Source: Candidatus Velthaea sp. (GTDB taxonomy: Bacteria > Vulcanimicrobiota > Vulcanimicrobiia > Vulcanimicrobiales > Vulcanimicrobiaceae). Taken from it: 64,000 nucleotides of DNA. The DNA is taken from NCBI GenBank assembly GCA_050012475.1, contig JBEKHC010000007.1, positions 16,586-80,585 of the forward strand, in the 5' to 3' direction. The position numbers and the translations under genes were made by a program. The notes beneath the pieces are model-generated. The model had not been told where the DNA came from and made no database searches. It saw only the letters and a list, made by a program, of their open reading frames with translations. Of the stretch, positions 1,363-3,925 are shown in pieces. Each line of letters opens with the position of its first letter. Position 1 is the stretch's first letter.

Positions 1363-1960
1363 TGGAACCTGAACATTGCTGTCATGTCGGGAACGATTGC
1401 GCTATGGTGCATAACGTCCACTTCGTGCCCAGAAGACCTGTGAAGATCGGTCGTCAGGCCCGCCAATTCTCACCACGGGCACGAATGCGCTTTCGAGCAC
1501 CTAGTGAGATTCTGGCTTGGCGCCTCGACGGGGGCTTGCCCGAATAAGTTAGGAGTGTTGCGCTTGCGCGGCTTGTAGCCGTAGGTCATCGGCTGATCCT
1601 TCGGCGGGTAGGCGTCGTCGACGCAGGTCGGCGGCCTAGTGGCGAGCGCGTTCTCGGCTTTATCGGAGGACGGGATCGAGCAGCGCGCGCCGTTTGTTCG
1701 ATTGACGACGCGGTGTGACGTCCTCACCAGCCGCGCCGTTGCGATATGAAGTTCGGCGATATGAAGCCAAGCGTCTCGCCCTCCAAGTTGCGGAACGCCG
1801 GTGCGTAGAAATCTTCTGGCACTCGAAGACGCGATCCACGCGTTCGAGTGCGAAGTGAATAAGGCGCAAGCGCGTCGCACTACACCGCCGGCGGCTCACG
1901 CGGATTCGCTGATCCCCGTTGATGGGGAGGAATCGGAAGCTTTCTGAGGGCCTTTTAATG

Positions 1961-1984
1961 AAAAAACCCTTACCGAATAAGGGT
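1961..1984 (-). terminator. Rho-independent terminator after the tRNA pair
   Basis: Minus strand ACCCTTA-TTCGG-TAAGGGT-TTTTT directly downstream of the tRNA-Glu CCA end. Confidence 0.8.
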
Positions 1985-1989
1985 CTTCT

Positions 1990-2065
1990 TGGTAGCCCCA
2001 ACGGGATTCGAACCCGTGTTACCGCCGTGAGAGGGCGGCGTCCTAGGCCTCTAGACGATAGGGCC
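1990..2065 (-). tRNA. tRNA-Glu (anticodon CTC), CCA encoded
   Basis: Reverse complement GGCCCTATCGTCTAGAGGCCTAGGACGCCGCCCTCTCACGGCGGTAACACGGGTTCGAATCCCGTTGGGGCTACCA folds as a cloverleaf with TTCGAAT T-loop. Confidence 0.97.
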
Positions 2066-2071
2066 GTAGTG

Positions 2072-2142
2072 CTCCCGGGCAGAGACTCGAACTCCGATAA
2101 ACGGCTTCAGAGGCCGCTGTCCTACCATTGGACGACCCGGGA
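2072..2142 (-). tRNA. tRNA-Gln (anticodon CTG), CCA not encoded
   Basis: Reverse complement TCCCGGGTCGTCCAATGGTAGGACAGCGGCCTCTGAAGCCGTTTATCGGAGTTCGAGTCTCTGCCCGGGAG; acceptor stem TCCCGGG/CCCGGGA, D stem GTCC/GGAC. Confidence 0.95.
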
Positions 2143-2718
2143 ACGCCTATGATTCTTGGCACCGAAAGTTTCGGTCTGGCTGTGACAGTTCGGACACAGC
2201 ATCCGAAGATTCTCAAGACGGTGATCGTCCCGGATGCCGTTGCGGTGATCGATTTGGATGGATAGCGGTTTACCCCTCCACTCCGTGAGGCCGCAGTCGT
2301 CGCATGCATTGATGAGTATACCAGCCTGGATCAAGCGACGCTTGATCGTCGTGCGCGACCGTGAGGTGGCAAGCACTTTGTTGATCGGCGTGAGGCGGCC
2401 GCGAGCCACCAATTCGCCGCGCTGAACGGCCTTCGTCCAGGAGGCGGGCGCAAATCGAAAGCGGTCCCGGCACTCCCGGTACGAGTGGCCCTCATCGTAG
2501 TAGCGCTGCACGTCGGCCCAGTCGTATCTGCGCCGGCGATCGGCAAAGGTTTCGCCGTCTCGCGGCACACGGAGCTCACCGCGGTTCAAGGCCTTGATCC
2601 AAGCGGTGTGCGAAAACCCAAAAGCCTTGCAACAGGCGACGAACCGATGGCCCTCGTCGACGAACCGTTGGACAGCGGCCCAATCGTAGCGGCCACGTCG
2701 CTTGCACTGCTCTTCCAT
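2122..2718 (-). CDS. HNH endonuclease with two N-terminal repeats
   Basis: C-terminal CDDCG..WRGKPLSIQIDHRNG..DHRLENLRMLCPNCHSQT HNH/Zn signature; repeats RYDWAAVQRFVDEGH and RYDWADVQRYYDEGH; start placed at the ATG 7 nt after TATGCT. Confidence 0.9.
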   Translation of the reverse strand: MEEQCKRRGRYDWAAVQRFVDEGHRFVACCKAFGFSHTAWIKALNRGELRVPRDGETFADRRRRYDWADVQRYYDEGHSYRECRDRFRFAPASWTKAVQRGELVARGRLTPINKVLATSRSRTTIKRRLIQAGILINACDDCGLTEWRGKPLSIQIDHRNGIRDDHRLENLRMLCPNCHSQTETFGAKNHRRSRVVQW

Positions 2719-2860
2719 CCGACCAAGCATAGCCAACCCCTATGCCAGCCCCCTGGCACTCTGCCCAGAATACGAGCGAGGCGCCGGGGGAATAGGGTAT
2801 CCCCAACCCGGTGGCCTACTAAGAAACCGCAGGATTCTTCTTTTTTCGAAGGAGTTGCGT

Positions 2861-3925
2861 TTGCAGGCAGTGGTCCTAGTCGGTGGCGAGGGGACGCGAC
2901 TGCGTCCATTGACCCTCGAGACACCCAAACCGATGGTTCCGATCATGAACGTGCCGTTTCTAGAGCGGACCATGGAGCGGCTCAAGGAAGCAGGGATCGA
3001 CGAGGTCGTGCTCCCGGCGGGATACCTGCCGGCAGCAATCAGCGATCACTTCGGCGATGGGTCCCGTTTCGGCATGACGATCGACTACGTCATCGAGGAC
3101 ACGCCGCTCGGAACCGCCGGCGCGGTCAAAAACGTGGCTCAATACATCAAGGGTCCGTTCTTCGTGCTCAACGGCGACGTGCTCACCAGCCTCGATCTGC
3201 GCAAGATGATCGAGCTGCACGAGCGTAAGCGCGGCATGGGCGTTCTTCATTTGATTCGGGTCGACGATCCGTCGGCGTTCGGCTGCGTCGTGCACGACGA
3301 GTCGGGCAAAGTCAGCGCGTTCGTCGAGAAGCCCAAACGGGAAGAAGCTCCAACAAACGAGGTCAACGCCGGAACATATTTGCTCGATCCGGCGGTTCTC
3401 GATCTCATCCCCGACGGACGGATGGTCTCGATCGAGCGCGAAACGTTTCCGCTCGTCGTGGCCGGTTCACGTCCGCTGTATGCATATACGACGAGCGACT
3501 ATTGGATCGATCTGGGAAACCCCAAGGCCTATCTCAGCGCCCACCACAACGTGTTCGACGGCGCGATGCCGCTGGGGATCGGGCAAGGGATCGAGGGGCC
3601 CGGGGCGAAGGATGTTCCTGCTGGTTCGTGCATTACGCCGGTCTATATCGGCGACGGCGTGCGAATCGCATCCGGCGCCAGTGTCGGGCCGTACGCCGTA
3701 CTCGGAGCGGGGTGCTCGATCGGCGCGGGCGCGATCGTCCGCAACTCGGTTCTCTGGGATGCCGTCACGGTAGAAGAAGGCGCGTCGATCGACGGCGCGA
3801 TCGTGGCCAGCCGCGCGCTCATTGGCGCGGGTTCGACCGTCAGGCCGGGATCGGTCATCGGTCACGGTGTCATCGTCAGTTCCGGATCGGAGTTGGGAGA
3901 GAACGCGCGCGTCTCAGCAGGCTGA
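2861..3925 (+). CDS. NDP-sugar pyrophosphorylase (mannose-1-phosphate guanylyltransferase-like)
   Basis: LVGGEGTRLRPLT..PKPMVP motif and C-terminal hexapeptide repeats; TTG start after GAAGGAG. Confidence 0.9.
   Translation: MQAVVLVGGEGTRLRPLTLETPKPMVPIMNVPFLERTMERLKEAGIDEVVLPAGYLPAAISDHFGDGSRFGMTIDYVIEDTPLGTAGAVKNVAQYIKGPFFVLNGDVLTSLDLRKMIELHERKRGMGVLHLIRVDDPSAFGCVVHDESGKVSAFVEKPKREEAPTNEVNAGTYLLDPAVLDLIPDGRMVSIERETFPLVVAGSRPLYAYTTSDYWIDLGNPKAYLSAHHNVFDGAMPLGIGQGIEGPGAKDVPAGSCITPVYIGDGVRIASGASVGPYAVLGAGCSIGAGAIVRNSVLWDAVTVEEGASIDGAIVASRALIGAGSTVRPGSVIGHGVIVSSGSELGENARVSAG

Follow-up and report, generated by a model that had tools for sequence, protein, structure and literature searches.

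A lineage of phage-type HNH endonuclease genes at the tRNA-Gln(CUG) gene of Eremiobacterota (Vulcanimicrobiota)

Why should a nuclease gene end inside a tRNA gene of its host? The question is raised by a locus in the soil bacterium Candidatus Velthaea sp. (assembly GCA_050012475.1, contig JBEKHC010000007.1, positions 16,586 to 80,585), a stretch of 64,000 nucleotides (nt) referred to here as the window. In it, an open reading frame (ORF) resembling HNH endonucleases runs into the gene for the CAG-reading tRNA-Gln(CUG), which is followed by that for tRNA-Glu(CUC). The encoded protein ends in HRRSRVVQW, and the codons for SRVVQW together with the TAG stop are nucleotides 1-21 of tRNA-Gln, so that the stop occupies tRNA bases 19-21 within the D-loop of the D-arm. 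An earlier sequence-only reading of this DNA had pointed out the overlap, and the coordinates of the ORF and of the tRNA as called by ARAGORN and Rfam agree with it. Both tRNA genes are single-copy among the 54 tRNAs of the assembly, and the HNH gene is likewise present once. Free-standing homing endonucleases are familiar as residents of phages, introns and inteins. We consider it probable that the HNH gene belongs to a chromosomal lineage of phage-type enzymes of this free-standing homing kind, established at a single host site, and that the overlap results from tight packing against the tRNA.

Identity and position of the HNH gene

In contigs from one genome per species, 557 of 600 pattern matches encoded a relative of the HNH protein, and in all 80 best loci drawn from these a tRNA-Gln(CUG) gene lies beside the HNH gene, co-oriented and directly downstream in 78; in the remaining two the HNH gene is convergent and lies beyond tRNA-Glu. 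Among the lower-ranked matches of a sample of 401 genomes of the phylum, 17 of 20 are co-oriented and 5' of tRNA-Gln(CUG), one is convergent and two have no tRNA within 500 nt. A match was also found in 25 of 61 close genomes, 18 of which carry it directly 5' of the tRNA-Gln(CUG)-tRNA-Glu(CUC) pair in the same orientation; the other seven comprise two cut by contig ends, one with degenerate copies 3' of the pair, two weak matches with no tRNA nearby and two members of a second lineage described below. The association with tRNA genes suspected in the sequence-only reading therefore holds in all three sets. These tallies include the unpublished genomes G022, G024, G031, G032, G048 and G059 (G024 provides one of the eight tRNA-Thr loci below, G031 one of the 17 HNH-less genomes, and G032 and G059 two of the 25 positives), and the phylum sample also includes the unpublished G234, G251, G262, G288, G347 and G392; no conclusion rests on them alone.

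The other side of the site is equally regular. A divergent nucleotidyl-transferase gene precedes 67 of the 74 full-length HNH loci and also adjoins loci without the HNH gene, with 70-79% nucleotide identity across the bacterial family. This chromosomal synteny, together with the presence of only two tRNAs instead of the many found in phages, indicates that the locus is not phage-encoded and that the HNH gene is a relative of phage genes, not a phage copy. According to the record titles, the contigs of relatives are Eremiobacterota/Vulcanimicrobiota metagenome-assembled genomes. Three loci labelled otherwise were considered as transfers to other phyla and rejected: in L098 (Gammaproteobacteria) and L105 (Acidiferrales) the neighbour gene is 72-74% identical at the nucleotide level to that of Eremiobacterota, and in L092 (Rhodospirillales) the HNH gene and tRNA-Gln are near-identical to those of L101 from Vulcanimicrobiota. 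All three labels are probably binning errors; the comparison covered these three of the four loci filed under Acidobacteriota or Pseudomonadota, the fourth being L087, labelled Acidoferrum.

The identification of the gene as an HNH endonuclease, made in the sequence-only reading, is well supported. The match to Pfam PF01844 is borderline (21.4 bits at a cut-off of 21.4) and that to PF13392 (21.4 bits) stays below its cut-off of 24.8, but the PHROG family phrog_10822, "HNH endonuclease", matches at E 7e-28 and a further PHROG HNH family at E 1.8e-19. In NCBIfam nothing came near a cut-off (ZorE, 20.6 against a cut-off of 600). A protein search returned 2334 relatives, mostly of 188-202 amino acids (aa), and in 30 aligned relatives residues H164, N176 and H185 as well as C145, C148, C181 and C184 are invariant. 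The AlphaFold model, with a mean predicted local distance difference test score (pLDDT) of 76.7, shows two three-helix repeats followed by a beta-beta-alpha unit, whose strands at 159-162 and 177-180 precede a helix. The helices of the two helix-turn-helix (HTH)-like repeats, at 19-52 and 73-106, reach pLDDT 83-93, and these repeats are presumed to be the DNA-binding part. A Foldseek search of the PDB with the whole model yielded nothing at E <= 0.001 (EcoKMcrA ranked 31 with E 1.6), and VIA-align gave weak matches to the HTH domains of resolvase, Tc3 and SETMAR (Z 3.6-4.4) that cover the N-terminal HTH part only.

Is the gene still alive? The ratio of nonsynonymous to synonymous substitution rates (dN/dS) was 0.04-0.16 in 12 of 12 computed close pairs of relatives, a set that left out the saturated pair L001/L002 and one further pair interrupted by a stop codon, and in which five pairs belong to the layout called class B below. 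Such strong purifying selection indicates that the HNH proteins are made. A decaying relic, that is, a dead insertion whose open frame and tRNA overlap mean nothing, might be read from the Pfam score lying exactly at the cut-off, the stop lost into the tRNA and the pseudogenes among the relatives. Yet the full-length frame is intact with every catalytic and zinc residue kept, the PHROG match is strong and purifying selection acts on relatives of both layouts, and we regard a relic as very improbable indeed.

The features of the locus are collected in Table 1. In-frame starts of the HNH ORF other than the listed TTG are ATG 2730, which fits the N-termini of relatives (ML..M..), and ATG 2718, which is also possible. 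The terminator that the sequence-only reading had placed after tRNA-Glu is visible as a hairpin followed by a T-run on the minus strand, although the hairpin scan reports it on the plus strand only; it is the sole terminator-like site in 1500-3200, and the interval between the ORF and the tRNAs has none. Between the HNH start and the divergent neighbour gene stands a palindrome, perhaps an operator or a terminator for both directions; the empty site of G036 has an unrelated GC-rich hairpin at the equivalent position. The tRNA-Gln of the window has no encoded 3' CCA (2066-2074, ...GGGAGC then AC), in contrast to the adjacent tRNA-Glu and to most relatives, which encode it.

Table 1. Features of the HNH/tRNA locus (window coordinates)
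Feature	Position	Strand	Remarks
HNH endonuclease ORF	2122..2736	minus	204 codons from TTG 2736; stop TAG 2124-2122
Two tandem ~40-residue three-helix HTH-like repeats	2413..2688	minus	residues ~17-55 and ~70-108; seen in alignment
HNH (beta-beta-alpha-metal) nuclease domain	2167..2307	minus	residues ~144-190; CxxC...CxxC zinc ligands with H164, N176, H185
TGGTATACT, candidate extended -10	2315-2323	minus	codons GCT GGT ATA CTC (Ala-Gly-Ile-Leu) inside the HNH ORF
Overlap of HNH ORF and tRNA-Gln	2122..2142	minus	21 nt; last six sense codons and TAG
tRNA-Gln(CUG)	2071-2142	minus	ARAGORN; Rfam tRNA model 2072-2142, 60.8 bits
tRNA-Glu(CUC)	1990-2065	minus	ARAGORN; Rfam tRNA model 1993-2065, 58.7 bits
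Intrinsic-terminator-like hairpin and T-run	1960..1984 (hairpin 1966-1984)	minus	directly after tRNA-Glu; from sequence
Palindrome TGCCAG-CCCC-CTGGCA	2743..2758		16 nt, strandless; just upstream of HNH start; kept in congener G003
Divergent nucleotidyl-transferase gene	2861..3925	plus	conserved left flank; "manC-like" by eye from GGxGTRLRPLT N-terminus

Presence, loss and replacement at the site

Within the phylum sample 196 of 401 genomes have an HNH match (E <= 1e-20), so that the gene is far from being fixed in all relatives, a fixation that the sequence-only reading had named as counting against it. The matches fall in two families, with 187 of 296 genomes in one (f1) and 8 of 30 in the other (f3), and none in the 75 genomes of the other 19 families. 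Presence is mixed even within genera, as in g45 (55 of 80), g25 (21 of 33) and g52 (13 of 18). In the genus of the window, the window's own genome (G000) and G003 carry the gene; the site is empty in G002, where 225 nt separate the corresponding neighbour gene from the tRNA and no trace of HNH is left, and G001 keeps only a remnant of about 50 nt of the HNH motif (tblastn E 3.8e-4). At the G001 locus (L115) the interval from the neighbour gene to tRNA-Gln holds a tRNA-Ser(UGA) gene on the opposite strand (1307-1385), which stands 115 nt before tRNA-Gln. G002, G009, G036 and others lack the HNH gene but have kept both the flank and the two tRNAs. Empty alleles, named in the sequence-only reading as a thing to look for, thus exist within the genus with the flank intact. 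At least six of the 25 positive close relatives (G007, G008, G015, G018, G032 and G053) have internal stops or frameshifts, and ten loci hold two tandem HNH copies that are mutually 46-57% identical. Extra or displaced HNH copies beyond tRNA-Glu, co-oriented or convergent, were observed at L255 (G401, 501-893), L020 (G008), L081, L099 and L266.

To see how the gene versions relate to their hosts, locus pairs with similar flanks were compared, host history being judged from the linked flank gene only. In 17 locus pairs the neighbour proteins are at least 90% identical, and in 12 of these the HNH proteins are less than 70% identical and in 11 the tRNA-Gln genes less than 80%. The contrast is strong in L075/L085 (neighbour 98%, HNH 58%), L054/L079 (97%, 65%), L060/L087 (97%, 55%) and L034/L038 (94%, 61%). 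The reverse case is L005/L061, in which the neighbours are 79% identical, the HNH proteins 93% and the tRNA-Gln genes 99%. The gene is therefore replaced at its site, and the tRNA beside it changes as well.

The variability of tRNA-Gln(CUG) is not shared by its partner. Mean pairwise identity is 0.71 for tRNA-Gln(CUG) against 0.94 for the adjacent tRNA-Glu(CUC), and in the genus of the window the respective ranges are 68-90% and 99-100%. The tRNA-Gln(UUG) genes of G001-G003 are 98-100% identical to that of G000. The tRNA-Gln(CUG) allele of G001 is 97% identical to that of G007, which belongs to another genus, and in the HNH-free genus g35 the tRNA-Gln(CUG) genes are 99-100% identical. A non-canonical D-arm, with more than two changes from the common type, is present in 67 of the 93 HNH loci; of 17 HNH-less genomes 2 have one, the genome with the remnant among them. 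The two sets were sampled differently and are related by descent, and the comparison is an indication, not a test. As a side observation, some variant tRNA-Gln(CUG) alleles (L009, L014 and others) have D-arms usual in other tRNAs or phyla, and all keep the 5' TCCCGG acceptor strand. One such variant D-arm resembles that of E. coli tRNA-Gln.

These data bear on a second explanation, in which the gene has been domesticated and its HTH-HNH protein has a cellular role, for example as a regulator of the tRNA-Gln/Glu promoter or in DNA or RNA processing at the locus, and is inherited vertically with repeated loss. Its fixed position, long persistence, strong purifying selection, single copy in the genome of the window and promoter elements interwoven with the ORF are what a host gene would show. 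About half of the genomes sampled from these genera and families, however, have no match, some copies are degenerate or reduced to remnants, and tandem copies have diverged. Near-identical hosts carry HNH versions that are 55-66% identical, the nearest relatives elsewhere are phage tRNA-cluster HNH genes, and a sister lineage sits at a different tRNA. We think domestication improbable. Site specificity, empty sites and turnover instead agree with the free-standing homing type, and that part of the origin proposed in the sequence-only reading stands. The other part, insertion between a tRNA operon and its promoter, does not: in 51 of 93 loci the HNH gene lies upstream of the tRNA promoter and reads into it, as described next.

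Two layouts of the HNH ORF and the tRNA promoter

For all loci the 75 nt preceding tRNA-Gln were aligned, and 93 non-redundant loci were tallied. Left out were the duplicates L031, L047, L091 and L102 as well as two loci with no co-oriented copy directly 5' of tRNA-Gln, namely L020, with degenerate copies on the 3' side of the tRNA pair, and L099, in which a full-length copy lies beyond tRNA-Glu in convergent orientation. The class of L097 and L109 was set by hand and that of L080 by a wider promoter pattern. Class A comprises 51 of the 93 loci and is marked by a strong promoter, TTGCAA-N17/18-TAGTAT, whose end is about 14 nt upstream of the tRNA. Of 17 HNH-less loci, 5 match this promoter outright (G004, G009, G021, G030 and G036), and two more (G031 and G034) match it with a divergent -35. 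The class A ORF reads through this promoter: the -35 hexamer encodes the Leu-Gln of a conserved tail, LQ(D/E)xxxxxV, and the stop is either the TAG of the -10 hexamer or a TAA three bases further on. The -10 box supplies the stop in two of three frames, and in 48 of the 51 loci the frame ends 12-54 nt ahead of the tRNA. In the HNH-free genus g35 of the sister family (L130, L134, L135 and L137) we noticed a near-consensus TTGACC-N17/18-TATAAT about 105 nt upstream of the tRNA-Gln/Glu pair, which has a conserved leader of about 70 nt.

Class B holds the other 42 loci, the window and G003 among them. Here the proximal promoter is absent, only 9-50 nt separate the last conserved codon (N195) from the tRNA, and in 37 loci the frame meets its first stop within the tRNA or further on (14 at -15, four at -21, three at -10, one at -22 and 15 further in, -54 among the positions, out to -241); in the other five it lies upstream, at 0 to +10. 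Over both classes, 40 of the 93 loci have their first in-frame stop inside or beyond the tRNA 5' end, so the overlap is recurrent and more than chance. A stop at -21 as in the window is thus confined to four loci. Close relatives stop at a TAA of tRNA positions 13-15; in the window position 13 is C, a structure-neutral T-to-C change that still pairs in the D-stem, and the frame runs on to the TAG at 19-21. The drifting stop position indicates that the overlap is tolerated, not selected. On a tree of the 74 full-length HNH proteins, from which 23 loci were left out as partial, duplicate or interrupted by stops in the aligned part, the A/B label needs two changes, and 0 of 500 shuffles gave a number as low.

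If class B has lost the proximal promoter, what transcribes its tRNAs? The sequence-only reading had seen no room for a separate tRNA promoter and had placed one, TATGCT-N7-ATG, before the HNH gene. The latter fails: TATGCT is a -10-like hexamer with no -35, a consensus scan found 0 sites in 1500-3200, and in G003 the motif is not at a usable distance. The proximal promoter is indeed missing, but a candidate for an internal tRNA promoter, recognised from its sequence, lies within the HNH ORF, a result that the sequence-only reading had itself named as refuting. A relaxed sigma-70 scan of the minus strand of 2100-2900 gave no -35/-10 pair reaching 8 of 12, and the same stretch contains a single TGnTAnnnT on that strand, TGGTATACT, an extended -10 element 172 nt before the tRNA. 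Of the 42 class B loci, 21, drawn from several clades, have either TGGTATACT or TGGTATAAT at a distance of 172-213 nt upstream of the tRNA, as against 0 of 36 class A loci at the same codon site and 3 of 51 anywhere within 700 nt. Three of its codons are rare in the long ORFs of the window (GCT is 10% of Ala, GGT 18% of Gly and ATA 7% of Ile), and synonymous divergence between clades is otherwise at or beyond saturation (synonymous divergence, dS, 0.3-4). Because the motif is kept in rare codons despite near-saturated synonymous divergence, we infer selection on the DNA itself at TGGTATACT. Its likeliest role is that of a promoter for the two single-copy tRNAs, which would then have a leader of about 170 nt of HNH coding sequence. 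Eight class B loci have another -35/-10-like pair, TTGCAA-N17-TAC[CTG]AT, at about codon 118, which is absent from the window, and 13 have neither internal promoter-like element.

The alternative to packing that deserves most attention is an evolved expression brake. RNase P cuts at the 5' end of tRNAs, and mRNAs without a stop codon are tagged by transfer-messenger RNA (tmRNA). If HNH, tRNA-Gln and tRNA-Glu formed one transcript from a promoter before the HNH gene, RNase P would remove the stop codon of the nuclease and tmRNA would act on the rest. Several observations agree with this: nothing resembling a terminator separates the ORF from the tRNAs, the proximal promoter of class A and of some HNH-less loci is absent from the window, most class B loci have no stop before the tRNA, and although ARAGORN found no tmRNA in the assembly, Rfam models detect both tmRNA (63.9 bits) and RNase P RNA (251 bits) in the genome. 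Contigs from an RNA library cover 1938-2244 and 2299-2564 at a depth of 3.8-4.6, and one of them (depth 4.6) joins 100 nt of the 3' end of the ORF to both tRNAs; however, a DNA run of the same study covered the region alike, the first contig extends past the terminator, DNA carry-over is possible, and neither transcription nor transcript ends can be read from such contigs. Three other RNA runs hold only the conserved tRNA-Glu. An RNA-library contig also contains a 14-nt tandem duplication, CTTTCTGAGGGCCT, at 1939 just beyond the terminator and a base change at 1954; the duplication is a strain variant.

Other evidence speaks against a brake. With a conserved extended -10 in the ORF of half the class B loci the tRNAs would need no upstream promoter, the TATGCT hexamer lacks a -35, and the stop that a brake would act on is unconserved, having moved in the window from -15 to -21 through a change neutral to tRNA structure. 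Class A keeps its stop only through the -10 box, in two of three frames, and the low dN/dS shows that a working protein is made. An evolved brake is accordingly unlikely in our view, though it is less so than the domesticated or the relic gene, and tight packing is the explanation that we prefer.

Phage relatives, a possible mechanism and its meaning

The phage kinship of the HNH gene is seen in several collections. In IMG/VR, 591 of 607 pattern matches encode HNH relatives; 73 of the best 80 of these viral loci have tRNA genes within 3 kb (up to 24), and in 32 the HNH match is followed within 150 nt by the start of a co-oriented tRNA. In the two viral loci that resemble the present one most, the HNH gene is flanked by tRNA-Gln(UUG) and tRNA-Gln(CUG), and in one its end, too, falls inside the tRNA. 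Among cultured phages 234 records match, including gene 94 of Rhodococcus phage Francesca, an HNH gene that abuts tRNA-Glu and tRNA-Gly with no spacer and whose product is 51% identical over residues 112-204. A second HNH lineage (93-258 aa, HNH motif 41-48% identical) was found in the same bacterial family directly 5' of tRNA-Thr(UGU) and co-oriented with it in 8 of 8 loci; its loci are L023 (1474-1755), L144-L149, L159 and L168. At one tRNA-Thr(UGU) locus the HNH ORF runs through the tRNA.

Several points weigh against a mobile homing lineage. The lineage is a proposal drawn from sequence, and strong, long-lasting purifying selection would fit a host function as well. The few A/B changes on the tree mean that much of the inheritance of HNH is vertical or within lineages, and the copy in the window is sister to that of its congener. 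Even the nearest viral relatives reach no more than about 42% identity over the longest matches. No phage donor and no vector came to light, as viral tRNA-Gln(CUG) genes beside HNH relatives are at most 77% like the bacterial ones. Similarity of tRNA-Gln and similarity of HNH are hardly correlated overall (Spearman 0.10), which does not bear out simple co-conversion of the two as one cassette. For the internal promoter, the evidence consists of the consensus and of synonymous-site conservation.

With these points in mind, a homing lineage might work as follows. The gene is a resident of two families of one Eremiobacterota (Vulcanimicrobiota) class, directly 5' of the sole tRNA-Gln(CUG) gene, at a site bounded by the conserved divergent sugar-nucleotidyl-transferase gene and the tRNA-Gln/tRNA-Glu pair. 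Its protein would bind DNA through the two HTH-like repeats and cut alleles of the locus that lack HNH or carry another version. Repair from an HNH-bearing copy, in which the invariant tRNA-Glu on one side and the conserved neighbour gene on the other would serve as homology arms, would introduce the nuclease gene, often together with another allele of tRNA-Gln. A 3' end of its own is missing from the gene: in class A it reads into the tRNA promoter and stops at the TAG or TAA of the -10 region, and in class B, where the proximal promoter has been lost, the ORF enters the tRNA and the internal extended -10 probably drives the tRNAs, whose expression in the host would then depend on the DNA of a selfish gene. 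The stop inside the tRNA would be a by-product of this packing, and the overlap itself is no conserved feature.

Since no terminator-like site intervenes, a full-length HNH transcript would read into the tRNAs, and it would be cut by RNase P at 2142/2143. A ribosome trailing the polymerase could finish at the TAG before the tRNA folds; after cleavage the message would have no stop, and tmRNA non-stop rescue, for which the gene is present, is the pathway that would handle it. RNase P cleavage could in this way keep nuclease output low and self-limited. Animal mitochondria offer a parallel known as tRNA punctuation, in which excision of flanking tRNAs makes the mRNA ends and stops are incomplete or overlapping. 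There, as here, RNase P at the next tRNA would set the end of an mRNA whose coding sequence may overlap the tRNA, but in mitochondria polyadenylation completes the stop and the arrangement is genome-wide, whereas here it concerns one selfish gene in a bacterium.

Self-limitation by stop loss may occur and is not a new idea: in a 2008 report, removal of the stop by tRNA maturation was proposed for SegB of phage T4 and for the F-Tfl enzymes of phage T5, of which the HNH enzymes F-TflI, -II and -IV of a phage tRNA cluster are named (PMC2330249). SegB is a free-standing homing endonuclease of the GIY-YIG type in the T4 tRNA cluster that recognises the tRNA T-psi-C motif in DNA and carries tRNA genes along (PMC2330249). 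The likeness to the present locus lies in a free-standing nuclease gene wedged between tRNA genes and an ORF end that coincides with a tRNA processing site, and it may extend to transcription of the gene with the tRNAs and to recognition of tRNA-gene sequence with carriage of neighbouring tRNA genes. It differs in that SegB has a GIY-YIG instead of an HNH fold, resides in the genome of a virulent phage instead of a bacterial chromosome, has shown homing in phage crosses where the present lineage is known as sequence, and is described with no promoter embedded in its ORF.

The HNH enzymes of phage tRNA clusters, such as phrog_10822 and the Francesca gene 94 product, are closer. A survey of viral tRNA clusters mentions HNH genes inside the clusters. 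These enzymes have a homologous HNH domain, and their ORFs are packed against a downstream tRNA with no spacer or an overlap. Unlike them, placed among many phage tRNA genes of varied identity, the present lineage keeps to one host locus with chromosomal synteny beside the sole tRNA-Gln(CUG) of the host; it has two N-terminal HTH-like repeats, where most phage matches cover the HNH part only, and two fixed ways of sharing sequence with the tRNA promoter. Full-text literature outside subscription journals yielded no description of genes of this sort resident at a tRNA locus of a chromosome, nor any from Eremiobacterota. What is new is a lineage of phage-type HNH genes that has persisted for long in chromosomes, at one essential tRNA, with two promoter-sharing layouts and rapid replacement of the adjacent tRNA.

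A bolder picture can be drawn, which we put forward tentatively and hold to be less likely than not to be right in all its parts. It would be a phylum-restricted homing system that holds an essential tRNA hostage, in which phage-descended HNH cassettes repeatedly overwrite the sole tRNA-Gln(CUG) and its promoter. The resulting arms race would leave a hypervariable tRNA-Gln next to a frozen tRNA-Glu. In the lineage with the promoter inside the ORF, the parasite could not be deleted without silencing two tRNAs, RNase P would impose one-shot, tmRNA-limited synthesis of the nuclease, and sister cassettes would behave likewise at tRNA-Thr(UGU).

For annotation, the layouts imply a simple rule: the end of an ORF of this family is to be sought in the tRNA or its promoter, and gene callers consequently give such ORFs varied false tails. 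For the phylum, the lineage is present in about half of the 401 sampled genomes and almost without exception at the same tRNA. If our interpretation is right, this would be a natural system in which to study the spread of a selfish nuclease between cells with no phage cross involved, and it would explain how one tRNA gene evolves many times faster than its neighbour. It would also provide two examples of a protein tail and a promoter written in the same bases, and one of a host promoter relocated into the ORF of a parasite.

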